Source: Salinispira sp. (GTDB lineage: Bacteria; Spirochaetota; Spirochaetia; DSM-27196; Salinispiraceae). Taken from it: 64,000 nt of DNA. A program made the position numbers and the translations under genes. This document shows positions 1,539-19,120 of this stretch, in pieces. How positions within the stretch are numbered: position 1 is the first letter of the stretch; the number at the start of each line of letters is the position of its first letter. Where the stretch lies: the NCBI GenBank assembly GCA_965602015.1, contig OZ271918.1, positions 1,920,001-1,984,000 of the forward strand. The letters run 5' to 3'. The notes beneath the pieces were generated by a model, which saw only the letters and a program-made list of their open reading frames with translations, was not told the origin of the DNA and did not search any database.

Positions 1539-2801
1539 GTGAAAGTACTGGTAGTTGGTAACGGAGGCCGCGAGCACGCAATTGCCTGGAAATTTTCCCA
1601 GAGCACCCGCCACAGCGGGATTTTTTGCGCTCCCGGCAATGCGGGCACCGCAGAATTTGCCGTAAATTTACCAGACATTGCCTCCGACGACACAGCCGGA
1701 GTCTGTCGGGCAGTAGAGGAACATGGCATTGACCTGGTATTCATCGGTTCCGAGCTGCCGCTTTCGATGGGAATGGCTGACGAACTTCGAAAAAAAGGGG
1801 TTCTCTGCGTGGGACCGGGCGCCGACGGGGCCAAGCTTGAATCAAGTAAAGCATACAGCAAAGACTTTATGCTCCGCCACCACATCCCGACGGCTGAGGC
1901 GCGGGTTATTTCCACGGCAGATGAACTGGAAACCTATCTCAAAACTGCGGATTACCCCCTCGTTGTGAAAAAGAGCGGACTAGCCTCCGGCAAGGGCGTT
2001 CTTGAAACGACGTCGTATAAGGAAGCGATTTCCTTCGCCTCGGAGTATATCGGTGAAGGCCAGGTCGTGGTGGAAGAATATCTCAGGGGATATGAAGTAT
2101 CGATATTCGCCCTGAGCGACGGCGAGAATCACCTGGTCCTGCCCGCGGCGGCTGATTATAAAAAGGCCGGCGAAAACAACAGCGGCCCCAACACCGGGGG
2201 CATGGGCGTGGTTTGTCCCGTGCCCTGGTTCGACACCGGCCTTATGGGGGAGATTCGCCAGCACATAATCGAGCCCAGCTTTACCGGACTGCGCAGTGAC
2301 GGCATAGATTACCGGGGCATCTTATATATCGGCCTTATGATTACTGAGGAAGGACCCAAGGTACTGGAATACAATGTGCGTTTCGGCGATCCCGAAGCCC
2401 AGGCCCTTGTGCCGCTGATACGAAACGATTTCTGCAACCTGTTCGAGGCCGTGGCGGCCGGGAGGCTCAAGGATATAGTCCTGGACGTATCGGACTCCCA
2501 GAGCCTTTGTGTCGTTGTGGCGGCAGAGGGATATCCGGGCCCCTATAAAAAATCTCTGCAAGTCGATCTCGTCCAGGCGAGCGAGGACCGTACCACTCAT
2601 CTCTTCCACGCTTCCACCTATCTCGATGAAGGCACTCTGCGAACCAACGGCGGACGCTGCTTCGCGGCAGTGGGAACCGGGAGCGATTTTCTGAAAGCCC
2701 GCAAGCGGAGCTACGAGCTGGCATCAAAGGTGCGCTTCGAAGGGGCCTGGTTCAGAAAGGACATCGGCAACCGCATTTTCGGCAATAACTCCATCGGCTA
2801 A
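1539..2801 (+). CDS. purD: Phosphoribosylamine-glycine ligase
   Basis: GNGGREHAIAW, APGNAG, LESSK, GPNTGGMG, EYNVRFGDPE. Confidence 0.97.
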   Translation: MKVLVVGNGGREHAIAWKFSQSTRHSGIFCAPGNAGTAEFAVNLPDIASDDTAGVCRAVEEHGIDLVFIGSELPLSMGMADELRKKGVLCVGPGADGAKLESSKAYSKDFMLRHHIPTAEARVISTADELETYLKTADYPLVVKKSGLASGKGVLETTSYKEAISFASEYIGEGQVVVEEYLRGYEVSIFALSDGENHLVLPAAADYKKAGENNSGPNTGGMGVVCPVPWFDTGLMGEIRQHIIEPSFTGLRSDGIDYRGILYIGLMITEEGPKVLEYNVRFGDPEAQALVPLIRNDFCNLFEAVAAGRLKDIVLDVSDSQSLCVVVAAEGYPGPYKKSLQVDLVQASEDRTTHLFHASTYLDEGTLRTNGGRCFAAVGTGSDFLKARKRSYELASKVRFEGAWFRKDIGNRIFGNNSIG

Positions 2802-2864
2802 GCGTTCCCCGGGGAATGACAATCCACCGAGGACATCTTTACTCCATCACAGACTGCGACCTGG

Positions 2865-4344
2865 GGCAAAACTCACAGAACGGGGAGACAGCGCCACAAT
2901 CACCGACACTAAAATCACCATCAACCGGACAGGAACCTACCGCCACTACAGCTGGGACCTGTTAAACCGCCTGGAAAACGTCGAAGAGCTCGATGAACAC
3001 GGCAATCTGGTCGTGATAAAAGAATACGGCTATGATGTGAATAACCTGAGGATATGGGAGAAAAACCGACACGGCCAAATCACCCATTACGTCTTCGACC
3101 ACAAGGGCAACAGAATCGAACGGCACACAGACGAAAAGAGCGAATACTACATCTTCAGAAACCTCCACCACATCGCCAAACGGGTGGTAGACCACAGCAC
3201 CAACACCGAAAAGACCTACTTCTACGGCACAGACCACCTGGGAAGCACCGTGCTGATGACAGACGAAGACGGCAACGAAGTTTTCTCAGCAGAGACCACC
3301 CCCTTCGGCGACTCGGTCTCTGAGTCAGGAGCCATGGCCGACACAGAAAACCTCATGTACACCGGAAAGGACCTAGATGAAGATACCGGGCTGTACTACT
3401 TTAATGCACGCTGGTATGACCCAACGGTGGGTAGGTTTATAAGCGAGGATCCGGCGAGGTTTGGCGCGAACTGGTACCGGTATGCTGCAAGCAATCCCCT
3501 CAAATACTTCGATCCAACCGGACTGAATGAAGTGAGCTGGGATACAACGATCTTCGATGCAGGGGATTATCACACAGATACCCCTGAAAATGAGAATTAT
3601 GAAAACGTAGAAGAAACAACAACAGAGGTTGCCACCTATGAGGAAATTACTGAACAGATCAATCACGTCTCCACTGGTATTTCTGCCCAGGAAACGATAA
3701 CCCAGCAGTCAGAAAAACTCGTTGAACTATCACAACAAAATACCAGTGAGATGACTCTTGATGAATTTCTATCTCACCAGCAGGAGATGCAGGATTTAGC
3801 AAAAGAGTTGTTACAAGGAATCCTGGATTATCGTGCAGCGGGATATAATAGCTCAAATTCAGATGAAAACGAAAATTCTCAGAACAATCAAAACATCGAT
3901 ATCGATAGCCGTGGTTTTATTATCTCTTTTGGCTTCACAGGTTTTATAGGAGCCGGTGGTGGCTCCTCGATATCTGGAGGTATTAATTTTGGTATAGATT
4001 TTAACAACGGGGATGTTTTAATGAATTTCTCTGCAGCCCCAAGCGCAGGTCTATTAGTTGGTGCATCTGGGTTTGCTGGTGGGTATTTAGCTATTACACC
4101 TATGGAAACTGATCCTGATGTCCTTGCTGGCAATTTTCTACAAATTGGTCTTTCTGCGGGTGAAGGAAAAGGAATGGGCATTGATATAGCTCTTCCTTTT
4201 CAGCAGGGTGTTAATCCAACCTTGACTGGATCATACGGTGCTACAATAAAATTCCCGATTCCAGGTGAATTTCATATTTATGGAGGTCAAACAACAGTGA
4301 CTGATTCGATCAAAATATTCGATTTTAGACCATTCCGAAAATGA
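2865..4344 (+). pseudogene. Orphan Rhs cassette 1: 5'-truncated Rhs core, acidic linker and Gly-rich C-terminal putative toxin (ORF track 3013..4344)
   Basis: TDHLGST, YTGKDLDEDTGLYYFNARWYDPTVGRFISEDP, NPLKYFDPTGL. Homology to cassettes 3 and 4 starts near 2865, upstream of the called GTG, with no convincing start or RBS. Confidence 0.88.
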
Positions 4345-4724
4345 TATTTCAAACACTTTTTATGTACTTATCATTCCTGATCGTGCTTCTATCAATAATA
4401 ATAATCAGAAAGAGGAATCAAGCAAAAGCTAGGATCACATCGGAGAAAGCTCAGAAGGGTATTATTTGTGGTGTAAGGTATAATGGGTTGAGCGCTTCAG
4501 CTCCATTTGCATCGCTGAGAATTTTTGAAAATTCGATTCAAGTCAATATTTTAGGTAGGACTGCGCTCTATAAGGATCTAAGTAATCTGGTATCCACTGA
4601 AAAAAAGAAAGGATTATTTGACCTTGGTCTCGAACTAAGATTTGATTCTGGAGAAAAAATAATTATTTGGACAAAATATTCTTATTCGCTTTTTGATTTG
4701 CTAATGGAAATAGAGCATACATGA
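4341..4724 (+). CDS. Putative immunity protein of cassette 1 (N-terminal transmembrane helix)
   Basis: ATGA overlap with the toxin stop, AT-rich, 127 aa, hydrophobic N-terminus. Confidence 0.7.
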   Translation: MIFQTLFMYLSFLIVLLSIIIIRKRNQAKARITSEKAQKGIICGVRYNGLSASAPFASLRIFENSIQVNILGRTALYKDLSNLVSTEKKKGLFDLGLELRFDSGEKIIIWTKYSYSLFDLLMEIEHT

Positions 4725-4728
4725 TCAA

Positions 4729-5642
4729 CCCACAAGACCTGACTTGAGCTGCGCCGGATCCAATCCCGGCGTCAGCTCCAAGTATCCTTCTTATGGGGGT
4801 TGAGCCGGCAAACGAGTTCTTTGAAATACGTCAGTCAGTGACGGACCCATCGAAGAGCATCTTGTTCCCGTAGAGCAAGAACTCTTCTGCTGACCGCTGA
4901 TGCTTGCAGCAGCCTGCAGAAGAGAAAAACGTCAGACCACAAAACGCTTGAAGTCCACCCGGCTGCCGTTGAAGTTGACCAGGTAGCCCACCCGGATGCC
5001 CGAAAGCCTGAGGTAGTTTATGAGCTGGGCTTCCATAACAGCCGTGAGCTTTGAAACGCTCTTGAGCTCGAGAATGACCTTGCCCTCGACCACCAGGTCG
5101 GCAATGTATGCTCCGGCAAGCTCCCCTTTGTAGTACACCGGATAGACCTTCTGCTGTTCCACCGTGAGATTTAACCTCCGGCACTCAATAACCAGCGCAC
5201 CCTCGTACGCACTTTCCAAAAGCCCGGGACCCAGGATGTTGTGCACCGAATACAACGCCCCTACCACCGTGTATGACAGTTCCTTGAAAAGATACTCAGC
5301 CATGCTGACCTCCTTTTTCAAGGAAGCAGTCTCGCAGCGACGAGCGGTCAATGCCCGATAATTGGCGTACCGCAGCCATCATGCATGGCGAGGAACGCCA
5401 ATATGAAGAGCGAAGCGCGGCTTGACCGCGAGGAGCGGAGAGATACACTTGAAAAAAACGGAGGAAGCCAGACAGCTCAAGCCCGTGAAATAAGGCGCGA
5501 ATCCTCGCGCCCCATTCTTTCCTTTCTTACAACATACCATCAGCAGAGAAATCCCTTTTACAAAACTGCCCCGGTCACCAAACCAAATCCGTGAATATTG
5601 GTGCTGATACGTGGTACACCCCAACTCCCTAATACGTGGCTT
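4729..5642. repeat. Conserved structured inter-cassette spacer, copy 1 (hairpin + GxxExxY gene + structured region)
   Basis: Near-identical to 10120-13205 (IS21-interrupted) and 15317-16235; partly matches 17984-18335. Confidence 0.93.
4932..5303 (-). CDS. GxxExxY family protein (PD-(D/E)xK nuclease-like fold), copy 1
   Basis: LGPGLLESAYE motif and ADLVVEGKVILELK; AAGGAGG RBS before the ATG at 5303 (the 5351 start is unlikely). Confidence 0.92.
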   Translation of the reverse strand: MAEYLFKELSYTVVGALYSVHNILGPGLLESAYEGALVIECRRLNLTVEQQKVYPVYYKGELAGAYIADLVVEGKVILELKSVSKLTAVMEAQLINYLRLSGIRVGYLVNFNGSRVDFKRFVV

Positions 5643-5698
5643 ACCAACCTTATCGCTGCTGACCAAAAATCTACAATCTCGGCCAAATCCAATCGGCA

Positions 5699-6315
5699 AT
5701 GATCATCACAGAAGCCGGAAGCGAAGAATGGAAACCCAATCCCCTTCAGCGAAGCCATGGGGTAGTGCAATCCGACGTCCTGGGCACCACACCATTCACC
5801 ATAGACCAGAGGGACCTGGAACTCACCACCACCGCAGACAGCCTGGTCATAGACACCGGCTTCGGCTACACCCTCAAACGCATTGAAATACCCTTTGAGG
5901 CCCTCGATGCAGCCCAGATGAGGCCGGAAACCCTCCAGGTCTATACCGCGCTATACAACAGCGAAATAGCATACGAACGCCAGGAAGAGGCTCACATAAG
6001 CATCAGCCACAACACCGTAACCATCACCTTTCCGGCACCAGTGTTTACCCGCTACGTCAAACTCCATTCAACCGTCCACACCCTCGCTGACGATGGGGAT
6101 GAGCGAAATACTGGTACGATATTCCAGGCCGATGCCAGCGAAATCATCGTCACCGCCATCACCGGGGGCCGCAACGAGTTCTACAACTACACCCCCGACG
6201 GCAACCGCTCCATGCGAAGCATCCTCGCCGGCAGCATGCAGAGTGAACAATACCAGTACTACCCCAACTCAGACCTGCTCCAATACGACGGAACCTACTA
6301 CTATGCATACGATGC
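5699..6315 (+). pseudogene. Orphan Rhs cassette 2, N-terminal fragment cut by IS66
   Basis: 3' part (GRNEFYNYTPDGNRS...YYYAYD) matches the starts of cassettes 3 and 4; ends at the IS66 terminus. Confidence 0.85.
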
Positions 6316-6327
6316 GTAAGCGTCAAT

Positions 6328-7908
6328 TTAAGCCTGCACGATTGACTTCAGCTCCAGTAATTCGTCTTTGATGTTCCAGGGCAGCAGATCTTCCCAGTTC
6401 CCGGAATCCCCAATCTCTGGCGCTTTGGTGAAGACATGCACCAGATACCCATAGGGATTCAGTCCGTTCTGTCGGGCTGTCTCGATAAGCGAAAACATAA
6501 AACAGGAGCTTTCAGCGCCTCCCGGGCTTCCCGAGAACAGCCAGTTCTTTCGGCCGAGAACAAAAGGACGGATTGCATTCTCCGCGCCATTGTTGTCCGG
6601 GGTCAGATGCGGACTCTCTACATATTTCATGACCTTATCCCATTGCGACAGGGCGTAGGTCACCGCCTGCCCGACAGCGCTTGATGGACGAACGCTTAGC
6701 GCTTTCTTTTCGAGCCAGGCTTTGAATCTCTCTGCTACCGGGGCAATGCGGGCTTTGCGCTTCTGGGCAAACTCATCATCACTCAGGTTTTGGCTACGCA
6801 GCTCTTTCTCAATGCGGTAGAACTCGGCGATCTTCGATATGGCCTCATGAGCGCTTCCGGCTTTCTTTGAGGATTTGCCCGCTTCAAAGAATTTCCGGCG
6901 GACATGGGCCATACACCCCACGTGAATAATGTCAGGCCGGTCCTTCAATGTCGTTTCATACCCCACATAGCCATCGGTTTGCAGGTAGCCTGAAAAACCT
7001 GAGAGATAGGCTTTCGCATACTCCGATCCGCGGCTTCGGTGGTAGGCATAATCCACCACCGGTTTCCCAGGCGGACCTCCCCGGGCAAGCCACATATAGG
7101 ACTTGCTGGTGTTGGATTTCTCCGGCTCGTTCATAACCTGAACGGTTGTTTCATCCATTTGAATGACTGGGCCGGATTCTAACTGCTGTTTGAGCAGATC
7201 CTTCAGCGGCTTCAATGCCTGATACGCCTTCTGCTGCCAATTGGACATGTCCTGCCGGCTGATCCTAGCCCCAACCCGCTCAAAGCGCTTTTCCTGGCGG
7301 TAGTACGGCAGGTGATCGACGAATTTATTCTGAATAATGAAGGCCAGAAGCTCCGGGGTCGCAATGCTCTTGGGGATGATGGACGGCGGAACCGGCGCAA
7401 TGCGGAACACCGGTTTGTCTTCATCCCCGGAACCCTCGCAGTTCCGGCAGGCGTACTTGGGCCTGATATGCCGTTCGACGAAAAACTGCTCGGGGATGGT
7501 TTTCAGTTTTTCGCTGACTTCTTCGTCAATTTTGGAAAGCTCGTGCCCGCAGGCGCAGCGTTTCTGGTCTTCTGAGATGTCGTGGATCACATCGACCCTG
7601 GGAAGGTCATCGGATAAAGGCTTTCGCCCCCGCTTCTTCCGCGTATGTGAGGTGACCGTGGTGAGAGAACTGTCGGTTTCCGGCTCATCGGGCGGTGTTG
7701 ACTGAATCTCCCGTTCCTCAAAGAGCATGGCCTGCAGCAGCTCTTCAGCTGATTCACTGCTTCGGGCAAACTTCCGGAACCGGGCCAGCTTGAGCTGTTC
7801 CTGAAGGTCTTCGATTTCCAGTTCCTGCTCTGAAATTCTGGAACCGAGTGCGACTATGTGAGCCTGGACTTCCTCGGGTAACTGTTCAATCTCCGCCGCA
7901 CTCAGCAT
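6328..7908 (-). CDS. tnpC: IS66 family transposase TnpC
   Basis: Leucine zipper, CACG...CRNC zinc ribbon, QMDETT, QTDGY, CMAHVRRKF, DNNGAENAIRP, GRKNWLF. Confidence 0.95.
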   Translation of the reverse strand: MLSAAEIEQLPEEVQAHIVALGSRISEQELEIEDLQEQLKLARFRKFARSSESAEELLQAMLFEEREIQSTPPDEPETDSSLTTVTSHTRKKRGRKPLSDDLPRVDVIHDISEDQKRCACGHELSKIDEEVSEKLKTIPEQFFVERHIRPKYACRNCEGSGDEDKPVFRIAPVPPSIIPKSIATPELLAFIIQNKFVDHLPYYRQEKRFERVGARISRQDMSNWQQKAYQALKPLKDLLKQQLESGPVIQMDETTVQVMNEPEKSNTSKSYMWLARGGPPGKPVVDYAYHRSRGSEYAKAYLSGFSGYLQTDGYVGYETTLKDRPDIIHVGCMAHVRRKFFEAGKSSKKAGSAHEAISKIAEFYRIEKELRSQNLSDDEFAQKRKARIAPVAERFKAWLEKKALSVRPSSAVGQAVTYALSQWDKVMKYVESPHLTPDNNGAENAIRPFVLGRKNWLFSGSPGGAESSCFMFSLIETARQNGLNPYGYLVHVFTKAPEIGDSGNWEDLLPWNIKDELLELKSIVQA

Positions 7909-7950
7909 GGGTGAAATTCTAGCATAAAGGGATTAATCGATGGAAGAGGA

Positions 7951-8298
7951 TTAGTTGCATTCGGCATACTGAACTGCTTTGTGGGCGTGCCAAAAATCAA
8001 TGCCATCGAGCAACATCTTGAGTTCGCCCACAGTGATCTGCCGGGCCTGCTCCTCGGTGTTCGGCCAGGGAAAGCGGTCCTTTTCCAGACGCTTGAGCCA
8101 TAGACAGAATCCGTTGCGGTCCCAGTACACGCATTTGATCAACCGACGGTCCCGGTTGCAGAACAGGAACAGGGAGCCTGACATCGCCGACCGGTTCATC
8201 TGCTGTTCAACAATAACAGACAGACCATTCACCTGTTTGCGCATGTCCGTTACCCCCGGGCGGACATAGATTTCCAATCCGGTGAGATCCAGCATCAT
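7951..8298 (-). CDS. tnpB: IS66 accessory protein TnpB
   Basis: TDMRK, LFLFCNR, YWDRNGFCLWLKRLEKDRFPWP; start at MMLDL, overlapping the tnpA stop. Confidence 0.92.
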   Translation of the reverse strand: MMLDLTGLEIYVRPGVTDMRKQVNGLSVIVEQQMNRSAMSGSLFLFCNRDRRLIKCVYWDRNGFCLWLKRLEKDRFPWPNTEEQARQITVGELKMLLDGIDFWHAHKAVQYAECN

Positions 8299-8597
8299 AC
8301 AAAAGCCGCCAGTACTTCCCGCAGGCGGGCGGAGGAGATTCCATCTGCCAACAGAATGCGAAACCGCCGATCGATCTCGATGATGATTTCCGTCGAACAG
8401 TCTGAGGTGGCAGGTGGCGTGATTCGGACCAACTCGGGTAGCGCTGCTTGGGCGGCCGAAGCCTTTTTTAGCCGCTTCATCCAGTAATGCAGGGTTGAAA
8501 GCTTGATATCCCGGGCCCGACAGAACTCTTTCTGCGTCTGTCCGCTTTCCCGCCACTGGCTAATGACCTCTTGCCACTGTTCAATCTTCGCATCCAT
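8295..8597 (-). CDS. tnpA: IS66 accessory protein TnpA
   Basis: W...WRESGQTQKEFCR...STLHYW helix-turn-helix; first gene of the element. Confidence 0.88.
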   Translation of the reverse strand: MDAKIEQWQEVISQWRESGQTQKEFCRARDIKLSTLHYWMKRLKKASAAQAALPELVRITPPATSDCSTEIIIEIDRRFRILLADGISSARLREVLAAFV

Positions 8598-8668
8598 AAT
8601 TCCTCCAGGTGGAAGAATTATTTCATTTCAGGCTCAGGCTGTGCAGGGCCTGGTAAATTGACGCTTAC

Positions 8669-9254
8669 GTTTGTTCAGGCAAATACTGAAATAGTTATTC
8701 GGCGGGGTGCGCGGGGTACTCCTTACTCATTTCCTTATACACGTTCAGATGGTACAACTATTCAAGTGAAGCACCCAGATGGCGAGTATTATGACGGATT
8801 GCTGGATTTACAAGCTTTCGGAGTTTCATTATTCGATGATCCATTAATTGTACAGACAGTTGCAACTGATAATCTGAAAGATTCAAGAAATGTCATCTAT
8901 GCCCCTGCAGGAAGATATTCAGGAGGTTTATATGATGATCATTATAGCGAAGTTTATGATGAATATATATGGCTCCAAAATCCGGAACTTGGTATAGGAT
9001 TGAATACAGGTGTGTATTTACATTTAGGTAGTAACACACTGTCTGCATTGAGCTGGGCATGTCAGATGCTCTACCGCACTGACTACAATGAACTCTCCGA
9101 TAGGATGAAATCAGGGGGATATCGTTTTGAAGGTAGACGCCCATTTCGTGGTGCAACTGAAGTAAAACCGTCGCACTATATTGATGTTCGAATATATGGA
9201 GATGCACTACCGCCAGAGTCTGAATACAGCTCTCATGGATTTAGTTTTTATTGA
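8669..9254 (+). pseudogene. Decapitated toxin C-terminal domain, L,D-transpeptidase-like (Tlde1/YkuD-type motif)
   Basis: Open frame from the IS66 end; PAGRY...GVYLH-x8-SWAC motif; AT-rich; stop overlaps the next gene. Confidence 0.55.
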
Positions 9255-10054
9255 GGTTAAAATGTATGAAATGTAATTTAAAGACAATTATATTTATAAG
9301 TTTGCTTTTTTCTCTTTTAAGCTGCAACAAGATAAATGCGTTAGATTTAACTGGTAGAGAGTACACAGCTTGGAATATTACGTTCAGATTCCAAAAGACA
9401 GAAGTAATGATTGAACAATATGACGACACTGCATACACAGGACCAACAGGAATTGTAAATTACTCAATTGCTAACAGATCAGGGGTTGACTATTTGATTT
9501 TAGATTCAAATGGTTACGAAGTCGAATATCTAATTATCCAAGATGATTGGTTATTATTTTTATATGATGGAGATCGAAAGGATCCAATATTTATCGGAAT
9601 TACTTCGCACCCGAGTGATTTGGTTGCATTTTCGGTTTTAGGAGATTTGCCGTTAGACTATGAAGCGAGCTCATATTATCAATTTGGGCAAGAAATGTAT
9701 CCCCCCGAAAATCTAGGGCGTATAGAGTTATTTCAGCCTTGGTGTGAAGGAGTTGAAGGTTTTGGCGTCGGAGAAACAATTATTGTCAGAAACGCTGATA
9801 CTACTATCACTCTTTCAAATGGCTTTGTTTCATACTCACGCCCAGAATTATACGAATGGAACAGCAGGATAAAATCTATCAAGGTTCGTTCTTTGTTAAC
9901 CGATGAAAGCTTTATTGTTGATTTAGAGGATACGCCTCACTTACAGTACTTCGTGCTACCTGTAGAAGGCAAATCTGATTATGAAATTACAATTCTTGAG
10001 GTGTATCCAGGGGAGAAATTTGAGGATGCATGTGTGAACTTCATTTTTTCGTAA
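9251..10054 (+). CDS. Putative immunity lipoprotein (probable start ATG 9266); C-terminal beta-sandwich resembling NADase-type glycan-binding domains
   Basis: Signal peptide with lipobox LLSC; WCEGVEGFGVGETI, NGF, NSRIK, ITILEVYPGEKFEDAC motifs. Confidence 0.7.
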   Translation: MRLKCMKCNLKTIIFISLLFSLLSCNKINALDLTGREYTAWNITFRFQKTEVMIEQYDDTAYTGPTGIVNYSIANRSGVDYLILDSNGYEVEYLIIQDDWLLFLYDGDRKDPIFIGITSHPSDLVAFSVLGDLPLDYEASSYYQFGQEMYPPENLGRIELFQPWCEGVEGFGVGETIIVRNADTTITLSNGFVSYSRPELYEWNSRIKSIKVRSLLTDESFIVDLEDTPHLQYFVLPVEGKSDYEITILEVYPGEKFEDACVNFIFS

Positions 10055-10323
10055 GAAAAATTGAAATTCTAATTAATAGCATGCTGCATTTCAGTTCATT
10101 TCTTGTATTGCCGTATACACCCCATAAGACCTGACTTGAGCTGCGCCGGATCCAATCCCGGCGTCAGCTCCAAGTATCCTTCTTATGGGGGTTGAGCCGG
10201 CAAACGAGTTCTTTGAAATACGTCAGTCAGTGACGGACCAATCGAAGAGCATCTTGCTCCGGCCGGGCAAGAACTCTTCTGCAGACCGCTGATGCTTTCA
10301 GCAGCCTGCAGAAGAGAAAAACT

Positions 10324-10695
10324 TCACACTACAAAACGCTTGAAGTCCACCCGGCTACCGTTGAAGTTTACCAGGTAGCCCACCCGCAGCCCAGAAAGCC
10401 TGAGGTAGTTTATGAGCTGGGCTTCCATAACTGGAGTGAGCTTGGAAACACTTTTTAGTTCGAGGATGAGCTTTCCTTCAATTACCAGGTCTGCAATGTA
10501 CGCCCCGGCAAGCTCGCCTTTGTAGTACACCGGATACACCTTCTGCTGTTCCACCGCCAGATTCAGCCTGCGACACTCAATAACCAGCGCACCCTCGTAC
10601 GCGCTTTCCAAAAGCCCGGGACCCAGGATGTTGTGCACCGAATACAACGCTCCCACCACCGTGTAGGACAGTTCCTTGAAAAGATACTCAGCCAT
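10324..10695 (-). CDS. GxxExxY family protein, copy 2
   Basis: 123 aa with 5 substitutions relative to copy 1; AAGGAGG RBS. Confidence 0.92.
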   Translation of the reverse strand: MAEYLFKELSYTVVGALYSVHNILGPGLLESAYEGALVIECRRLNLAVEQQKVYPVYYKGELAGAYIADLVIEGKLILELKSVSKLTPVMEAQLINYLRLSGLRVGYLVNFNGSRVDFKRFVV

Positions 10696-10794
10696 GCTGA
10701 CCTCCTTTTTTCAGGAGGCAGTCTCGAAGTGTCAACGCCGGAATGAAATTGCAGTTTTTCACCGGAGTTAAATTGCAGACTTCCGGCAAATTTT

Positions 10795-11556
10795 TTAGAA
10801 GTCAACGACTCCGATTTTCATTCGATCCTTCATCCGATACGAGTCTCCTTTCAGGCTGATCACATGGGAGTGATGAAGCAGCCGGTCCAAAGTGGCCGTA
10901 GCAACTGCGTCATCAGTCATGATTTCTCCCCACTTCCCGAATACTTTGTTGCTGGTCAGAATGATTGATCCATGCTCATAGCGGGTATTGATCAGCTGGA
11001 AAAACAAGGCTGCCTGCTCAGCATTCAGGTTTTCATACCCAACTTCATCAATCAACAGAACGTGGGGTTTGCCAAACCAGGTCAGTTTGTTTTTCAATCT
11101 TCCCTGATCCCGGGAACGCTGTAATCGTTCAAGCAAATCAAGACAGCTGATGAAATAGGCCGTATACCCATTCATACATGCCTTCTGTCCAAGCGCTGTC
11201 ATGAGGTGCGTTTTACCCAATCCACTGGGACCAAGCAGAATGACATTCTCTTTACGTTCAATGAACGCAAGGGTGGACAGTTCGTTGAACTGCTTGTGTG
11301 TAAGACCGCCTTTCGGCCATGACAGATCAAAGGATTCAAGATTCTTTCCCTGGGGAATTCCTGAAACCTTCAAGCGGGTTTTGGCCATTCGTTCCTTTCG
11401 GGGAATCAGTTCCAGATCAATGAGTTCTCCGATCGCTTCAATCAGAGGCGCATCCTGATTCACCTGGCTTGAGAGAAAACTGTCCAGACCGGCAGCCATG
11501 AAGCTCAAACCCAACTCTTCCATACGGGCTGTAATCATTGTGCTTTTACTAGTCAT
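10795..11556 (-). CDS. istB: IS21 helper ATPase IstB
   Basis: Walker A GPSGLGKT, LLIDEVGY, LDRLLHH, GDSYR. Confidence 0.95.
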   Translation of the reverse strand: MTSKSTMITARMEELGLSFMAAGLDSFLSSQVNQDAPLIEAIGELIDLELIPRKERMAKTRLKVSGIPQGKNLESFDLSWPKGGLTHKQFNELSTLAFIERKENVILLGPSGLGKTHLMTALGQKACMNGYTAYFISCLDLLERLQRSRDQGRLKNKLTWFGKPHVLLIDEVGYENLNAEQAALFFQLINTRYEHGSIILTSNKVFGKWGEIMTDDAVATATLDRLLHHSHVISLKGDSYRMKDRMKIGVVDF

Positions 11557-12803
11557 GAGGCCGCCTCCTGCAGTGCAAACAAGCGGTCGTACTCCCCAGG
11601 TGAGCGGACATCAACATCGGTAGAAACCTTTATCCGTTTTCTTCTCTTGGGTATCCGGTACTGCCTTTTCCAGAGCTCGGTCAGCGCCGCTGAGTGTTCA
11701 GCCAGGTAGAACCGTTGATTTCGCAATTCGAGGTTAAGCATGAAGGTTCGGATGATCTGATCCTCTGATGATACTTCGGCCTCACCGGTGAGCGGATCGA
11801 TACGTACAATTACCTCTGCACCAATGAATTGCGGGTGAACGCTGTACCAGTTGTTTCTCACCCGTACCAGAGATTCACCGGAGACACGCACATTGGTCGG
11901 TTTCCGGTAATCAAACGGCTGCGTTGGTAAGGGGGTAAGGAAAGCCTTTTCATGCGTAAAGCGTTCTGATCGGCTTTCATTGAGCCCGCCGATGACTCTG
12001 TGGCTGATATCCTCGCACCAGGTGATGACTGCTTCGTTTAACTCAATCAGTCCAGCTGGCAGTGCTTTGTGCTCGATCCAGAAGTTGTTCTCGTAGAACT
12101 GGATGAACCGTTCGACCTTTCCTTTGGTCTGAGGCCGGCGGACCTGGCATCGGCGGGGTGTGAATCCATAGTGCCGGGCCAGAGACAGCAGGTGCTTGTT
12201 GACCTGCCATTTCTCCTCTGCGGCCTGGTAGATAAAGGCGGTTTTCATGTTGTCGTACAGGATTTCTTCCGGCACCCCGCCAAAATATGTGAATGCCAAT
12301 ACGTGGCACATCAGAAAGGTGGCCATGTCCATGCTCGTGGTATGAATGACAAACGGCATTCTCGAGTAGCCGAATACCATGACAAAGGCATAGAGTTTCT
12401 GCCACCGTCCGTCCACCAGCTGTTTTCCCAGGATTTTCCAATCCACCTGAGCCTGGTAGCCCGGTTCGGTTTCGAACCGGATAACTGCCTGTTTTGTGAT
12501 ATCTGCAGCCTTCCTGGCAGCATAATCCCTGAGGATTGTGACCCCGCCATCGTATTTCTGTTTTCGCAGGTTCCTCAACAGAACCTCCCGATTGAAGGAC
12601 GGGTCTTCCTCGAGTATAGTGTCGATGTAGGGTTTGAACGGATCGAGCTTGCTCGTGTAATTCCGCTTCTTTCGAGACCTTGAAGGCTCTGCAAGGTAGT
12701 AGTGAACCATGCGTTCACTTTTTCCCAGGGCTTCGGCGATCTGACCGATTCTCTTACCCTGTTGTTTCAACATCTGTGCTTCATGCATCAGTAGCTCCAG
12801 CAT
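11553..12803 (-). CDS. istA: IS21 transposase IstA
   Basis: RFETEPGYQAQVDW, YDNMKT, PQTKGKVER, N-terminal HTH. Confidence 0.95.
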   Translation of the reverse strand: MLELLMHEAQMLKQQGKRIGQIAEALGKSERMVHYYLAEPSRSRKKRNYTSKLDPFKPYIDTILEEDPSFNREVLLRNLRKQKYDGGVTILRDYAARKAADITKQAVIRFETEPGYQAQVDWKILGKQLVDGRWQKLYAFVMVFGYSRMPFVIHTTSMDMATFLMCHVLAFTYFGGVPEEILYDNMKTAFIYQAAEEKWQVNKHLLSLARHYGFTPRRCQVRRPQTKGKVERFIQFYENNFWIEHKALPAGLIELNEAVITWCEDISHRVIGGLNESRSERFTHEKAFLTPLPTQPFDYRKPTNVRVSGESLVRVRNNWYSVHPQFIGAEVIVRIDPLTGEAEVSSEDQIIRTFMLNLELRNQRFYLAEHSAALTELWKRQYRIPKRRKRIKVSTDVDVRSPGEYDRLFALQEAAS

Positions 12804-13248
12804 TTTAGGGCGTGCTCCTTACTTGAATGATTGTGTGGTAACAACCATTACAAGGTAGCATCGCCCTTTTTTTCAAGCCGGAGTCTGCAATTTTAGTCCG
12901 GTGATTTCCTGCAATTTAGCACCGGTGATGACACGAAGCGACGAGTGGTCAACGCCCCTGAGCGAAGCGCGGCTTGACCGCGAGGAGCGGAGAGATACAC
13001 TTGAGAAAAACGGAGGGAAGCCAAGGCAAAAAAGCCTGAAAATGTCGGGCAAATGCGGTGCGAATCCTCGCGCCCCATTCATTCCTTTCTTTCAACATAT
13101 CGTCAGCAGAAAAATCCCTTTTGCAAAACCGCCCCGGTCACCAAACCAAATCCGTGATTATTGGTGCTGATACGTGGTAGACCCCAACTCCCTGATACGT
13201 GGCTTTCTCTCATCCCCCCGACTTTAGAAAATTCTCACCGCCGAACTT

Positions 13249-13925
13249 ATGGGCCGCAACGAGTTCTACAACTACACCCCCGACGGCAACCGCTCCATGC
13301 GAAGCATCCTCGCCGGCAGCATGCAGAGTGAACAATACCAGTACTACCCCAACTCAGACCTGCTCCAATACGACGGAACCTACTACTATGCCTATGATGA
13401 GAACGGCAACCTCACAGAACGGGGAGACAGCGCCACAATCACCGGCACTAAAATCACCATTAACCGGACATTAACCTACCGCCACTACAGCTGGGACCTG
13501 TTAAACCGCCTGGAAAACGTCGAAGAGCTCGATGAAGAAGGCAATCTGGAAGTAATAAAAGAATACGGCTATGATGTGAATAACCTGAGGATATGGGAGA
13601 AAAACCGACACGGCCAAATCACCCATTACGTCTACGACCAAAAGGGCAACAGAATCGAGCGGCACACCGACGAAAGAAGCGAATACTACATCTTCAGAAA
13701 CCTCCGCCACATCGCCAAACGGGTGGTAGACCACAGCACAAACACGGAAAAGACCTATTTCTACGGCACAGACCACCTGGGAAGCACCGTGCTGATGACA
13801 GACGAAGACGGCAACGAAGTCTTCTCCGGCGAAACCACCCCCTTCGGCGACTCGGTATCCGAATTAGGACCCATGGCCGACACAGAAAACCTCATGTACA
13901 CCGGAAAGGACCTGGATGAAGATAC
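13249..13925 (+). pseudogene. Orphan Rhs cassette 3, truncated by IS3; toxin and immunity genes lost
   Basis: Nearly identical to 16279-16955; breaks at ...KDLDEDT where the IS begins. Confidence 0.9.
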
Positions 13926-13975
13926 TGAACCGCCCCGGCTTTACCGGAGACAAAATCTTGTGAGAGGATGGAGTC

Positions 13976-14302
13976 ATGGTAAAGAAAAACAGCAGGTTTT
14001 CTGAGGAAGTTAAGGAGCGGGCAATCCGCATGGTATTCGCCGCCAAAGGTGAATATGATTCTCAGTGGGCCGCAATTGAGTCGATAGCTGAAAAGATAGG
14101 CTGTACTGCAGAGACGTTACGGCGGTGGGTTCGCCAAGCCGAGAAAGATAATGGTAGTCGGGAGGGACTTACAACCGACGAGAAGAAGCGAATCAAGGAG
14201 CTCGAGCGGGAGAACCGGGAGCTCAAGAAAGCCAATGAGATTCTACGTCTGGCTTCCGCATATTTCGCGAAGGCGGAGCTCGACCGCCAACACAAGAAAT
14301 AG
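13976..14302 (+). CDS. IS3 transposase OrfA
   Basis: HTH SQWAAIESIAEKIGCTAETLRRWV, leucine zipper, AELDR. Confidence 0.92.
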   Translation: MVKKNSRFSEEVKERAIRMVFAAKGEYDSQWAAIESIAEKIGCTAETLRRWVRQAEKDNGSREGLTTDEKKRIKELERENRELKKANEILRLASAYFAKAELDRQHKK

Positions 14303-15198
14303 TCTGCTTCATTGATGAACACCGCGATGACTATGGGGTCGAGCCGATTTGTACTCAGGTGCCAATCGCTCCTTCGGTGTACTACGAACAGAAAAAGCGA
14401 GTAAAACACCCTGAAACAGCTCCCGCAAGGGTAAAGCGCGATGAAATCCTGAAGCCAGAGATCCAGAGGGTTTGGGATGAGAATTATGAGGTTTACGGCG
14501 TTCGCAAGGTCTGGCACCAGCTGAAGCGAGAAGGATTCCAGATCGCACGATGTACCGTGGCCCGTCTCATGGCTGTCATGGGGCTTAAAGGCGTCATACG
14601 AGGCCGCAAGGTGCGAACCACAGTACCGGACCCGAAAAATGAACGTCCGCTCGATTTGGTGCACAGGGAATTCAGTGCCGACCGTCCGAATCAGCTGTGG
14701 GTGGCGGATTTCACTTATTGCGCGTCTTGGGTGGGTTTTGTATATGTGGCATTTATCATCGATGTATTTTCACGAATGATCGTCGGATGGCGTGCCTCGA
14801 GGTCCATGAGCGCAGAGCTGACGCTGGATGCTCTGGAACAAGCCCTGTGGGCAAGGCAACCTGAAAATGGGCTGATCCACCACAGTGATCGTGGGAGCCA
14901 GTATCTGTCAATCCGGTATTCTGACCGCTTAGCAGAAGAAGGCATTGCCCCATCTGTTGGGAGTGTAGGCAGCTCATATGACAACGCGCTGGCTGAAACC
15001 ATAAACGGACTGTACAAATCCGAAATGATCTACCGTAAAGGACCGTGGAAAAACCTGGATGCTATTGAGGCTGCTACGCTGGAATGGGTAAGCTGGTACA
15101 ACAATAAACGGATTTATGAAATCCTGGGATATATGCCTCCGGCAGAGTTTGAGAAGGCATATTATGATCAACTGCAAGACGCAGCCAGCGGGCTGTAG
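14299..15198 (+). CDS. IS3 transposase OrfB (DDE integrase core), in the -1 frame relative to OrfA
   Basis: YGVRKVW, WVADFTY, HHSDRGSQY, YDNALAE; homology extends upstream of the called GTG (FIDEHR..YGVEPIC). Confidence 0.9.
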   Translation: MVCFIDEHRDDYGVEPICTQVPIAPSVYYEQKKRVKHPETAPARVKRDEILKPEIQRVWDENYEVYGVRKVWHQLKREGFQIARCTVARLMAVMGLKGVIRGRKVRTTVPDPKNERPLDLVHREFSADRPNQLWVADFTYCASWVGFVYVAFIIDVFSRMIVGWRASRSMSAELTLDALEQALWARQPENGLIHHSDRGSQYLSIRYSDRLAEEGIAPSVGSVGSSYDNALAETINGLYKSEMIYRKGPWKNLDAIEAATLEWVSWYNNKRIYEILGYMPPAEFEKAYYDQLQDAASGL

Positions 15199-15316
15199 TC
15201 ATACAAAACACTCTCCGGGATTCCCGGGGCGGTTCAGTCTGAAACACATTGCAAAAAAAAGATGTTGCTCTAAAGTTCATAAACAATCATTTATCATGAT
15301 TACCATAAAGCATTTT

Positions 15317-16235
15317 CCCCATAAGACCTGACTTGAGCTGCGCCGGATCCAATCCCGGCGTCAGCTCCAAGTATCCTTCTTATGGGGGTTGAGCCGGCAA
15401 ACGAGTTCTTTGAAATACGTCAGTCAGTGACGGACCAATCGAAGAGCATCTTGCTCCGGCCGGGCAAGAACTCTTCTGCAGACCGCTGATGCTTTCAGCA
15501 GCCTGCAGAAGAGAAAAACTTCACACTACAAAACGCTTGAAGTCCACCCGGCTACCGTTGAAGTTTACCAGGTAGCCCACCCGCAGCCCAGAAAGCCTGA
15601 GGTAGTTTATGAGCTGGGCTTCCATGACCGGCGTAAGCTTAGAAACGCTCTTGAGCTCGAGAATGACCTTGCCCTCGACCACCAGGTCGGCAATGTATGC
15701 TCCGGCAAGCTCCCCTTTGTAGTACACCGGATAGACCTTCTGCTGTTCCACCGTGAGATTTAACCTCCGGCACTCAATAACCAGAGCCCCCTCGTACGCG
15801 CTTTCCAAAAGCCCGGGACCCAGGATGTTGTGCACCGAATACAACGCCCCTACCACCGTGTATGACAGTTCCTTGAAAAGATACTCAGCCATGCTGACCT
15901 CCTTTTTCAAGGAAGCAGTCTCGCAGCGACGAGCGGTCAATGCCCGATAATTGGCGTACCGCAGCCATCATGCATGGCGAGGAACGCCAATATGAAGAGC
16001 GAAGCGCGGCTTGACCGCGAGGAGCGCAGAGATACAATGAAAAAACGGAGGGAAGCCAGACAGCACAGCTCAAGCCCGTGAAATAAGGCGCGAATCCTCG
16101 CGCCCCATTCATTTCTTTCTTTCAACATACCGTCGGCAGAGAAATCCCTTTTACCAAACTGCCCCGGTCACCAAACCAAATCCGTGAATATTGGTGCTGA
16201 TACGTGGTAGACCCCAACTCCCTGATACGTGGCTT
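15317..16235. repeat. Inter-cassette spacer copy 3
   Basis: Same hairpins and layout as copy 1. Confidence 0.93.
15521..15892 (-). CDS. GxxExxY family protein, copy 3
   Basis: 123 aa from the ATG at 15892, with AAGGAGG RBS. Confidence 0.92.
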   Translation of the reverse strand: MAEYLFKELSYTVVGALYSVHNILGPGLLESAYEGALVIECRRLNLTVEQQKVYPVYYKGELAGAYIADLVVEGKVILELKSVSKLTPVMEAQLINYLRLSGLRVGYLVNFNGSRVDFKRFVV

Positions 16236-16278
16236 TCTCTCATCCCCCCGACTTTAGAAAATTCTCACCGCCGAACTT

Positions 16279-17745
16279 ATGGGCCGCAACGAGTTCTACA
16301 ACTACACCCCCGACGGCAACCGCTCCATGCGAAGCATCCTCGCCGGCAGCATGCAGAGCGAACAATACCAGTACTACCCCAACTCAGACCTGCTCCAATA
16401 CGACGGAACCTACTACTATGCCTATGATGAGAACGGCAACCTCACAGAACGGGGAGACAGCGCCACAATCACCGGCACTAAAATCACCATTAACCGGACA
16501 TTAACCTACCGCCACTACAGCTGGGACCTGTTAAACCGCCTGGAAAACGTCGAAGAGCTCGATGAAGAAGGCAATCTGGAAGTAATAAAAGAATACGGCT
16601 ATGATGTGAATAACCTGAGGATATGGGAGAAAAACCGACACGGCCAAATCACCCATTACGTCTACGACCAAAAGGGCAACAGAATCGAGCGGCACACCGA
16701 CGAAAGAAGTGAATACTACATATTCAGAAACCTCCGCCACATCGCCAAACGGGTGGTTGACCACAGCACAAACACCGAAAAGATCTACTTCTACGGCACA
16801 GACCACCTGGGAAGTACCGTGCTGATGACAGACGAAGACGGCAACGAAGTCTTCTCAGCAGAAACCACTCCCTTCGGCGACTCGGTATCAGAATTAGGAC
16901 CCATGGCCGACACAGAACACCTCATGTACACCGGCAAGGACCTGGATGAAGATACCGGGCTGTACTACTTTAATGCACGGTGGTATGACCCGGGGACCGG
17001 GCGGTTTATAAGCGAGGATCCTGCACGGTTCGGTTCGAACTGGTATCGGTATGCAGCGAGCAATCCCCTCAAATACTTCGATCCAACCGGATTGAATGAA
17101 GTGAGCTGGGGTACGAGCATATTCGATGCCGGGGAATTTCATACAGAGAGTAGTGAGAACTATGAAAACGCAGAAGAAACAACGACAGAAGTTGCTACCT
17201 ATGAGGATCTTACTGAGCAGATCAATCACGTCTCCACTGGTATCTCTACCCAGGACACGATAACCCGACAGACAGAAAAATTAGCTGAGCTATCACAACA
17301 AGATACCAGCGGCATGACGATTGATGAATTTCTTGCCTTCCAACAAGAGATGCAGGATTTAGCGAAGGAGCTGCTCCAAGGAATCCAGGATTATGAAGCT
17401 GCGGGGTATGACACTGATAGAGTGCTCACTGGTTTAGCACTAAACGAATCAAATGGGCACCAAAGCGCTTCGTGGGAAATAAATCGAAATACAATATGGG
17501 GCATAGCTGAAATTATCGGTGGTGGAACAGTAATTGGATTATCATGGGTTTCAGCAGCTTCGCTGGCACCTACAACAGGGGGGACATCAGCGATGGTTGG
17601 CTACAATGGCACATTATTTGGGAGCGCTCTATTGGCACATGGATTAAACAGAGTAACTGGAAATACAAACCAAACTGTAATCGAGGATTTAAAGCAAATC
17701 ATTACGCCGCCAATTGCAGAACTTGGAAAAATAAGGACGGAATAG
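16279..17745 (+). CDS. Orphan Rhs cassette 4: truncated Rhs core, acidic linker and hydrophobic C-terminal putative toxin
   Basis: YD-type repeats, Rhs core signature, DPTGL, then a unique Gly/Ala-rich hydrophobic tip. Confidence 0.88.
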   Translation: MGRNEFYNYTPDGNRSMRSILAGSMQSEQYQYYPNSDLLQYDGTYYYAYDENGNLTERGDSATITGTKITINRTLTYRHYSWDLLNRLENVEELDEEGNLEVIKEYGYDVNNLRIWEKNRHGQITHYVYDQKGNRIERHTDERSEYYIFRNLRHIAKRVVDHSTNTEKIYFYGTDHLGSTVLMTDEDGNEVFSAETTPFGDSVSELGPMADTEHLMYTGKDLDEDTGLYYFNARWYDPGTGRFISEDPARFGSNWYRYAASNPLKYFDPTGLNEVSWGTSIFDAGEFHTESSENYENAEETTTEVATYEDLTEQINHVSTGISTQDTITRQTEKLAELSQQDTSGMTIDEFLAFQQEMQDLAKELLQGIQDYEAAGYDTDRVLTGLALNESNGHQSASWEINRNTIWGIAEIIGGGTVIGLSWVSAASLAPTTGGTSAMVGYNGTLFGSALLAHGLNRVTGNTNQTVIEDLKQIITPPIAELGKIRTE

Positions 17746-17975
17746 TGATAGATTTTTACTTAATCTCAGGCACAATAATAATTATAATTTTCATGTCGGT
17801 TGGGCTTTTAAAATCAACTCCTGACAAAATTGATAAAACTCGTGATGATTTAGATAAAAATCAGAAGGAGAAACTAAAAAGAGTGGCGAAGATATCCGCA
17901 ATAATTGGATTTATTATGGCCACACTTATGCTTATTCTTCTAGTTATCGGTTTTTTGCTTCCGAGTTCAAAATAG
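17745..17975 (+). CDS. Putative two-transmembrane immunity protein of cassette 4
   Basis: GTG overlapping the toxin TAG (TAGTG); two hydrophobic segments; 76 aa. Confidence 0.65.
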   Translation: MIDFYLISGTIIIIIFMSVGLLKSTPDKIDKTRDDLDKNQKEKLKRVAKISAIIGFIMATLMLILLVIGFLLPSSK

Positions 17976-17983
17976 CTGAGCCC

Positions 17984-18335
17984 CCCCATAAGACTGACTT
18001 GAGCTGCACCGGATCCAATCCCGGCGTCAGCTCCAAGTATCCTTCTTATGGGGTTGAGCCGACAAACGAGTTCTTGGACATACATCAGTCAGTGACGGAC
18101 CAATCGAAGTGCGGTTTGACCGCGATGAGCTGAGAGATACAATGGGAAAATCCGGAGGGAAGCCAGACAGCACAGCCCAAGTCATAGGGAGTAAGGCGCG
18201 AAACCTCGCGCCCCATTCATTCCTACTCTTTCAACCTACCGTCAGCAGAGTATTCACTTTTGATAGGCGGGCCCAGTCACCAAACCCAATACGTGAAAAT
18301 GGGTGGGCATCCGTGGTAGCACCAAACTTCCTGAT
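17984..18335. repeat. Inter-cassette spacer copy 4, lacking the GxxExxY segment
   Basis: Left and right spacer arms are joined at a single CGAAG (18105-18109). Confidence 0.9.
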
Positions 18336-18346
18336 TTGAATTAAAA

Positions 18347-19120
18347 TCAAACAGGCGCCTGACGGCGAATTTCATACATCAGAATACCCGCCGCCACCGA
18401 AACATTGAACGAATCAATTTGACCGCCGCTTGGGATAGTCAGCGTCTGGTCACAGTGGCGGGAAACCTCCCGGGAAGGCCCCCTGCCCTCACTGCCGAGA
18501 ATAAGGGCGATTTTCCCCGAAAGCCTCACCTGTGACGGCGCTGAACCGTTGAGATCTGCAGAGTAAACCCAGAAATCCCGCTCTTTTAACTGTTCGATTA
18601 CTCGTACAAGGTTGGGAACGTAAATCACCGGAGTATGGTGACTGGCTCCGGCGGAGACCTTGCGAACCGTGTCATTTACCTGGGCAGAGCGCTTCTTTGG
18701 CAAAACAAGGGCTTCAACATCGAATAAATTAGCCGAACGTAAAATAGCCCCCAGGTTATGAGGATCGGTTATGCCGTCGAGAATAAGAACCAGGGGATTG
18801 GCTCTCTGACTCCCCTCGAGAATGGACCAGAGATCACTGTCAGCCCTTCTCTTCTCAAGATACTGGGTCGAAACCGCGAGCATAAGATGACGAAGACCCT
18901 TCGGCAGGGGAGAACCCAGAAGCTCGCTCGCTCGCTTCGCGAAAGCCCCTTCATCGAGATGCCGTATTTTTATATTGTCCTGCCCCGCCCTTTTTAGTAT
19001 TTCCTTTTCACGACGATTGAGAGACGGAGAAACAAGCAACTCGCCCCCTCCCCCCGATCGGGAACGCAGGTACTCCTCTATGTCGTGAAGGGAAAAGAGG
19101 ATGCTGTCATTGCTGGGCAT
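18347..19120 (-). CDS. rlmB: 23S rRNA 2'-O-methyltransferase, TrmH/SpoU family (RlmB-like)
   Basis: LDGITDPHNLGAILRSA, LGSEG.G, SFNVSVAAGI. Confidence 0.85.
   Translation of the reverse strand: MPSNDSILFSLHDIEEYLRSRSGGGGELLVSPSLNRREKEILKRAGQDNIKIRHLDEGAFAKRASELLGSPLPKGLRHLMLAVSTQYLEKRRADSDLWSILEGSQRANPLVLILDGITDPHNLGAILRSANLFDVEALVLPKKRSAQVNDTVRKVSAGASHHTPVIYVPNLVRVIEQLKERDFWVYSADLNGSAPSQVRLSGKIALILGSEGRGPSREVSRHCDQTLTIPSGGQIDSFNVSVAAGILMYEIRRQAPV

Follow-up and report, generated by a model that had tools for sequence, protein, structure and literature searches.

The stretch analysed here, referred to below as the window, consists of 64,000 nucleotides (G000:C1:1920001-1984000) of the complete 3.87-Mb genome of Salinispira sp. 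(G000). Its main feature is an array of Rhs toxin modules, in which four Rhs units alternate with four copies of a repeated spacer between purD and a trmH-like gene. The left chromosomal flank, purD (1539..2801, + strand), lies beside the trmH-like gene in two congeners, with gaps of 43 nt in G001 and 14 nt in G002, and this empty site identifies the Rhs array as an insertion. Two further Rhs arrays are present in the genome, at 3.34 Mb (array B) and 3.79 Mb. The spacer copies were located at 4726/4729-5642, 10118-13205, 15317-16235, and 17984-18335, and the full copies share 85-95% identity across 600-920 nt. A sequence-only reading of the window had proposed that each of the four Rhs units is coupled to the same spacer, and these coordinates and identities bear it out. 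The spacer is a composite, formed by an attC-like hairpin, a GxxExxY gene with its conserved leader, and a repeat arm named E. The repeat in the second copy, taken as one long spacer (10120-13205) by that reading, is real, but its length is due only to an IS21 insertion sequence (10730..12934, - strand) in its leader, with a 5-bp target duplication, CGAAG.

The left part of the spacer is a hairpin of 66-67 nt, which lies antisense right after the immunity gene. In the window the four attC-like sites occupy 4730..4796 (39.5 bits; core CTT, with one G-T pair in R'), 10122..10188 (41 bits; boxes CCATAAG/CTTATGG), 15319..15385 (41 bits), and 17986..18051 (39.8 bits), all of them on the - strand, which is the top strand of the site. 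On this strand R'' (CCATAAG) is separated by 7 nt from the first arm, which holds two extra bases 6 bp apart; a short loop connects it to the partner arm, and 5-6 nt further on stands R' (CTTATGG). Hairpins in the spacer had already been noticed from the letters alone, and the left one folds better than 200 of 200 shuffles (z -5.7 and -5.9). As in the attC sites of integrons, the R''/R' and L''/L' boxes are paired in an imperfect palindrome, the distal extra base is a T, and a 6-bp stem runs from the first extra base. The crossover triplet, in turn, is AAG/CTT in place of AAC/GTT at the eight Rhs-array sites of G000, and for this reason the hairpin is classed as attC-like and not as attC. The first extra base is C on the bottom strand, where G is usual; G is found in the sister site of G002, and C also occurs in canonical GTT sites. 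The spacers inside the hairpin measure 5-6 nt on the cleaved arm and 7 nt on the other, compared with 5-6 nt in the usual attC site, whose length is 57-141 nt. Homology among the eight copies stops 1-4 nt past R', and at three of the eight junctions GTT continues directly beyond R'.

A structural attC scan of the genome, which accepted any first core base and was designed after the sites had been seen, detected 22 sites (8 CTT and 14 GTT), compared with 0 in the reversed-genome control. All 8 CTT sites fall within the three Rhs arrays, while the 14 GTT sites are divided among an integron at about 1.72-1.74 Mb, a cluster between 3.44 and 3.46 Mb, and array B, where one toxin-antitoxin cassette has such a site. 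The integron is complete (G000:C1:1716591-1743973), with GTT attC sites of 100-117 nt, and the cluster (G000:C1:3440645-3456059) contains the same GTT sites and no integrase. The intI gene, at 1742714 and about 180 kb from the window array, gives 379.5 bits with TIGR02249 (cut-off 265) and has its catalytic motifs; judged by its sequence, it is intact. Both the attC-like site and this integrase had been missed in the first account of the spacer, which was right about the repeat itself.

The arm motif of the hairpin retrieved at least 118 metagenome stretches and 20 viral ones. Among the matches listed (138 loci) there were 42 distinct sites with R boxes, of which 38 had GTT, 3 had ATT, and 1 was mismatched. 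The 34 canonical sites among them showed 92.8% pairing, with two-sided changes at 9 of 20 pairs, which is strong covariation. A sense gene ends at R'' in 18 of 36 cases and an antisense gene at R' in 2 of 36, many of the loci being short; the strand is therefore fixed, and the Rhs modules are truly inverted. The model built on these 34 sites matches exactly the four spacers in the window, and it also finds all eight G000 sites and two of the genome's own integron sites. One of the 42 sites, in L184, was found beside an Rhs gene, and its core is ATT. The gene-by-gene check covered the non-GTT sites, and the rest were covered by a motif scan, which found none beside Rhs and missed L184 as well.

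The same layout is found in other Spirochaetia, with other Rhs subfamilies and with one non-Rhs family. Toxin-linked sites have a CTT or ATT core in 25 of 27 cases, 23 of the sites being antisense and 4 sense. By source, the tally comprises 8 CTT sites in G000; 5 CTT (one with looser arms) and 2 ATT in G002; 1 ATT in G003; 2 ATT in G005; 2 GTT and 2 ATT in G497; 3 ATT in G498; 1 ATT in G499; and 1 ATT in L184. It excludes a CTT site located where a contig ends (G005:C48), another ATT site in G497:C163 that lies past a toxin-antitoxin pair, two incomplete copies of G002, and L111, which is doubtful. Among the matches listed for the metagenome part, unlinked sites were 61 GTT and 3 other (3/64 non-GTT). 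Fisher tests give p values of 7e-17 by site and 4e-7 by source, both overstated because copies and kin are not independent. The box pairs also covary in toxin-linked sites, and in five tested genomes the 7 pattern matches all sit at Rhs loci.

Several of these loci reproduce the order seen in the window. L050 presents tip, partner gene, site, and GxxExxY gene twice, in a different Rhs subfamily; in G498 three ATT sites follow three partner genes; and G499 has a full-length Rhs of 3388 aa, a partner gene, and then an ATT site 21 nt past the stop. In the congener G002 the array is formed by a non-Rhs family with M23-peptidase-like tips (a weak match) and secreted partners; this family (L283 and L284, G002:C1:1016000-1046000) had no Pfam match at E 0.001. 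Its CTT site has G and T as extra bases, as in canonical attC, together with 6/6 spacers, and two different partner genes stop inside the R box. After the site comes an antisense Rpn gene (four times) or HicAB (twice), and then the same E arm. The exact arm pattern occurred in 0 of 400 other Spirochaetota genomes, a search for the spacer DNA in 60 relatives gave 2 matches, both to the gene part only, and an Rhs query against metagenome contigs yielded no confirmed locus. Tandem Rhs orphans split by an Rpn/YhgA gene were observed in L035 (G011:C39), where no attC-like site was found, and a C-terminal tyrosine recombinase fragment lies inside an Rhs orphan locus of G003 (L036:8972-9487).

The hallmarks of orphan arrays are present in the Rhs units, namely, a truncated core ending in DPxG, a variable tip, and a partner gene. 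Unit 1 (2865..4344, +) consists of a 5'-truncated Rhs core (TIGR03696), a conserved 108-aa linker, and a unique tip, and it is followed by a gene (4341..4724, +) whose position suggests an immunity function and whose stop precedes the attC-like site by 5 nt; measured in five units, this distance is 5-67 nt. Unit 2 begins with a longer Rhs fragment (5643..6315, +) interrupted by IS66 (6316..8669, -), with loss of its core, and continues with a tip remnant and a lipoprotein partner with an NADase-type discoid domain (8670..10054, +). In unit 3 the Rhs core remains (13206..13923, +), the tip and immunity gene being deleted, and IS3 follows (13924..15238, +). The flanks of IS66 and IS3 are unmatched, which marks these elements as the cause of the deletions in units 2 and 3. 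Unit 4 (16236..17975, +) has the core, the linker, a unique tip, and a small membrane partner gene (17742-17975).

The eight tips of G000 have no mutual blastn or blastp similarity and their GC content is 37-39% versus 54%; the array is therefore not a simple tandem duplication, an explanation that the sequence-only reading had itself set out for checking. A toxin function of the tips can be proposed from sequence, and they are treated here as putative toxins. The two intact tips of the window had no Pfam toxin match at E 0.5; the unit-2 tip resembles YkuD/Tlde1 clusters, which we regard as a lead, and one tip of array B is NlpC/P60. No full-length Rhs parent was found in the complete genome, and seven longer Rhs homologues gave no match outside the arrays and none in their N-terminal parts.

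Three spacer copies were said to carry an antisense GxxExxY gene, and they do, at 4932..5303, 10324..10695, and 15521..15892 (- strand), with 135 bits for TIGR04256 (cut-off 35) and a match to PF13366. Copy 1 has the catalytic-type residues E30, D69, E79, K81, Q93, and Y97 intact, and E30, D69, E79-x-K81, and Q93-xxx-Y97 are kept across 30 aligned rows (the window and 29 of 66 loci). The structure model (predicted local distance difference test 95) is nearest to Cas4 SSO0001 (E 1e-4, template modelling score 0.56), then to lambda exonuclease and Hjc; as modelled, the protein has the residues and the fold of PD-(D/E)XK nucleases together with TIGR04256 membership. A sequence search of the PDB with the GxxExxY alignment gave 0 matches, and PADLOC gave no GxxExxY match. 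A hairpin at the 3' end of the gene (4882..4924) is a likely terminator. The count given by a terminator scan was not above that of shuffles. The leader (5304..5480) forms a GTCAAG/CTTGAC inverted stem, kept in spirochaete relatives as a 10-pair stem with two-sided changes at 5 pairs (15 rows). Outward promoters of sigma70 type were predicted in it at 5422-5449 (+), 12974-13001 (copy 2), and 16011..16038 (+, leader 3). Among 23 leader loci, such a predicted promoter is directed away from the gene in 21 and toward it in 0, with a short spacing of 15-16 nt; in the arrays it faces the Rhs fragment that follows, and 50 nt downstream there is a hairpin.

The E arm comprises three short repeats in direct orientation, placed where Rhs is truncated, and was found at 5574..5636, 13137..13199, and 16167..16229 (+). 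The fourth spacer copy lacks the GxxExxY gene and keeps half of the leader and E arm 4 (18102..18337, +), joined at the 5-nt microhomology CGAAG and touching the stop codon of the trmH-like gene. There are 9 E copies in G000, all in arrays, and E also occurs in four other genomes. E-type repeats reach 2.8 per kb upstream of GxxExxY genes and, inverted, 2.6 per kb downstream, against a background of 0.6-0.7, which makes E one of the arms of a GxxExxY element with a dispersed distribution. Rhs genes lie within 5 kb at 6 of the 66 relative loci, in 5 of the 6 antisense to the gene, and a single metagenome-assembled genome has 12 dispersed GxxExxY loci, one of them near Rhs. In other arrays its slot is filled by Rpn/YhgA or by a toxin-antitoxin pair of type II. 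Since the slot is shared in this way, and since Rpn constitutes a defence system of toxin-antitoxin type (PMC10400941), the GxxExxY gene looks, from sequence comparison, like cargo rather than the engine. E has a fixed place at variable truncation points, and it may have a role in capture.

Considering the whole spacer as a mobile repeat, the refuting case raised with the original proposal was that of a plain miniature inverted-repeat transposable element scattered without Rhs. It is ruled out, since hairpin and E are confined to the three Rhs arrays of G000; outside them the spacer has a 68% match in the gene, one of 34 nt, one of 55 nt, and nothing more. Insertion sequences and miniature elements have two inverted ends, a target duplication, and dispersal, whereas a single arm is present in G000; relatives of the GxxExxY gene unit are dispersed, unlike the G000 spacer. 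A reading as repetitive extragenic palindromes with their tyrosine transposases (RAYT) was dropped, with 0 Y1/RAYT transposases in the genome. Rfam over 2700-18500 matched only the IS3 ALIL pseudoknot, and nothing in the spacer.

By comparison with known systems, the array resembles integron attC sites and clusters of attC sites lacking integrases (CALIN), as far as these are described in the parts available of PMC5027507, PMC4889954, and PMC8618304, in its R and L boxes in an imperfect palindrome, the two extra bases 6 bp apart, the length of 66-67 nt, the clustering without a neighbouring intI, the intI elsewhere in the genome, and the toxin-antitoxin cargo. It differs in the CTT/ATT core instead of GTT, in the inversion of the main genes, and in cassettes that are multigene, with long shared homology and a polymorphic-toxin tip as payload. 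A CALIN comprises at least 2 attC sites with no intI nearby; here there are 4 noncanonical sites, with two gaps of more than 4 kb from the insertion sequences. With the Rhs orphan modules outlined in PMC2935791, PMC5361080, and PMC3482391 it shares the truncated core, the variable low-GC tip, the partner gene, the tandem arrays, and homologous exchange, but here each module carries a candidate site-specific recombination site, and the parent is missing in this strain. For the addition of Rhs tips, the accessible part of PMC2935791 postulates a circle and names no integrase, and the word integron is absent from that of PMC3482391. A small nuclease-fold gene with its own repeats and a dispersed distribution is shared with GxxExxY (TIGR04256/PF13366), Rpn/YhgA (PMC10400941), and, in what could be consulted of PMC11893778, Ssn/NTS; here one arm is left and the slot is shared with Rpn and type II toxin-antitoxin pairs.

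The sequence-only reading did not recognise a described system, and we likewise did not find the layout in the open-access literature on Rhs with integron, attC, or orphan, supplements being outside this scope. The rAID-1 clusters of Bacteroidales are immunity-only arrays with recombination sites between interbacterial-defence genes and an adjacent XerD-like recombinase; in the present array toxin fragments are included and no recombinase is adjacent. The array would work like an attC array, without the GTT triplet of attC proper; it joins CALIN-like cassette arrays and polymorphic-toxin orphans, with non-GTT cores, and is real and recurrent.

The sites have the anatomy described and boxes that covary, homology ends sharply next to them, the core is changed, intI is intact, and the spacer copies are mosaics between the three arrays. 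On these grounds we consider it probable that the array consists of integron-type cassettes in inverted orientation, which are insulated through their core base, cut out by IntI acting in trans, and exchanged by homology. In its favour, too, intI was above cut-off in 7 of 10 other genomes (3/5 and 4/5), in none of them beside these arrays. The module (core fragment, tip, immunity gene, and cargo) would be bounded by the CTT attC-like hairpin and the repeat arm, and the distant IntI of the genome would excise a circle between two like sites. The changed first core base would keep these sites apart from the GTT integron. According to PMC2811028, all integrons then known shared GTT, and a match between the partners is required at the first base alone: attC-CTT recombined with attI-CTT at 0.97 of wild type and with attI-GTT at 0.0015, and the ATT pair at 1.0 of wild type versus 0.003. 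CTT and ATT pairs recombine there with like cores, not with GTT, and natural CTT/ATT sites would therefore recombine among themselves and not with the GTT integron; those were laboratory constructs with IntI1, natural variants are found here, and the insulation is extrapolated from attC x attI reactions. The circle would re-enter an rhs gene or another array by homologous recombination at the Rhs core fragment. A single crossover into a parent rhs would install the new tip and push the old one downstream behind a spacer, so spacer and module would stay one-to-one. The GxxExxY gene, Rpn, or the toxin-antitoxin pair would be exchangeable cargo, with a likely stabilising effect on the array, and an outward promoter for the next immunity gene is likely provided by the GxxExxY leader. 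With the parent missing in this strain, the present role of the arrays would be that of a store of immunity and a pool of donors.

A number of observations weigh against this cassette reading. Cassettes of 2-5 kb would be large for integrons. No integrase lies beside the arrays, none of the 5 tyrosine recombinases of G000 is near them, and no attI with a matching core was found; the recombinase fragment of G003 fits XerC/D better than IntI. The three departures of the window sites (CTT core, C for G as extra base on the bottom strand, 7-nt spacer) could be inactivating. An ordinary GTT site lies inside array B, G497 has GTT cores at two Rhs-linked sites, and four linked sites are sense. No site was found at the Rhs loci of G011, G014, G500, G501, G006, and G028, other loci often being short. 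The related genomes and copies in the tally are not independent, and the finder and the training set of the model were shaped by the arm motif of the window. The parent rhs is missing, and the single Rhs start codon common to all three arrays is unaccounted for. No excision, circle, or order change was seen in the four runs of one study, of which only contigs were used and which were uninformative; the joints in those contigs are explained by the other two arrays.

Some of these points would fit relic sites, in which rhs at some time gained an integron cassette (GxxExxY, Rpn, or toxin-antitoxin) as a neighbour and the attC of that cassette became inert, locked by the core change, the spacer being merely homology for RecA-driven swapping and amplification. 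Homologous exchange is proven by the mosaic spacers, genomic 5'-GWT-3' sites can receive cassettes (10.1101/2022.09.11.507474), the window sites are noncanonical in three ways, GTT stands just beyond R' at three of eight junctions, and no excision appears in the contigs. We regard this account as possible but on balance unlikely, since both box positions changed together, twice (AAT/ATT and AAG/CTT) and in many genomes, as under pairing selection, eight unrelated flanks join within 1-4 nt of R', and in G002 two unlike partner genes end in the R box; besides, a single landing would leave an R' derived from the target and not complementary to R''. That the hairpin acts as an RNA, a two-way terminator between convergent genes that only resembles attC, agrees with its constant position between such genes. 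This is highly improbable, however, as a separate terminator-like hairpin is already present, the spacer has no Rfam match, and the extra bases and paired boxes match the attC sites of ordinary cassette arrays.

The claim that the coupling denotes a dedicated cassette system stands in part: the coupling is real and recurs, and hairpin and E occur only in Rhs arrays, but GxxExxY as its engine is not supported, given the shared slot, the scarcity of Rhs near its relatives, and their dispersal. A modified form would have the GxxExxY nuclease cut its own repeat arm E and join the end into rhs at variable points, giving truncated modules, with attC only closing the other side. It is consistent with E being fixed while the following Rhs start varies, with the enrichment of E-type repeats around GxxExxY genes (some 4-5 fold on the upstream side and, in inverted form, some 4 fold on the downstream side), with a predicted fold nearest Cas4 and lambda exonuclease, with GxxExxY remnants in the G002 and G497 arrays, and with the precedent of Ssn/NTS, described in the accessible text of PMC11893778 as a small nuclease with its own repeat. 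We nevertheless judge it quite improbable: many units lack the gene or have another in its place, there is a single arm and no target duplication was found, 60 of 66 relatives have no Rhs nearby, and the family has no known activity; Rpn, which can take its slot, is a defence system of toxin-antitoxin type (PMC10400941). Both activities might also be combined in Spirochaetia as an additional, orthogonal integron channel for interbacterial weapons, in which the GxxExxY arm would break the toxin gene upstream, the CTT/ATT attC would close it downstream, and IntI would release the circle that has long been proposed as an intermediate in the displacement of Rhs tips. This is unlikely; if true, it would be a working cassette factory, with a natural address code for integrase recombination.

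The locus bears on how orphan Rhs tips are added without losing the old tip and on the natural use of attC sites with a changed crossover base, so far engineered (PMC2811028, in the portion available). If IntI recombines these sites, integrons would be linked to polymorphic toxins, one integrase would serve two insulated cassette pools, and annotation based on GTT may overlook such arrays. The finding also gives a context to the uncharacterised GxxExxY family.

Some minor observations concern the arrays themselves. Array B adjoins dnaA-gyrB; at G000:C1:3339187-3341669 and 3347419-3348116 it also contains, between the attC-like site and GxxExxY, HicB, a VapBC cassette with a GTT site, IS256, and a RelE/HigA-like pair. 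The three arrays (window 2865, G000:C1:3349904 (-), and G000:C1:3788418) open with one and the same Rhs codon, which immediately follows a housekeeping gene and lies 157 nt further downstream than the start of the internal modules. The pentamer CGAAG (window 10725-10729, 12935-12939, and 18105-18109) is both the IS21 target duplication and the copy-4 deletion microhomology. Between the predicted outward promoter and a conserved hairpin there is a hypervariable stretch of 30-40 nt (window 16045-16085 and equivalents), which could be a small RNA whose content varies.

Elsewhere in the genome, a frameshifted solo GxxExxY gene with the same leader (G000:C1:1270120-1270490) lies directly upstream of cas1, in a CRISPR locus of type I-F-like character, with an IS66 copy inside its array. 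Weak E-like matches (E 0.07) occur near three small genes that stand in tandem and are almost identical (G000:C1:1264429-1266392). A 34-nt hairpin piece from the leader loop of copies 1 and 3 (window 5365-5398 and 15954-15987) is identical to G000:C1:1616999-1617032, just downstream of a tRNA-like gene.

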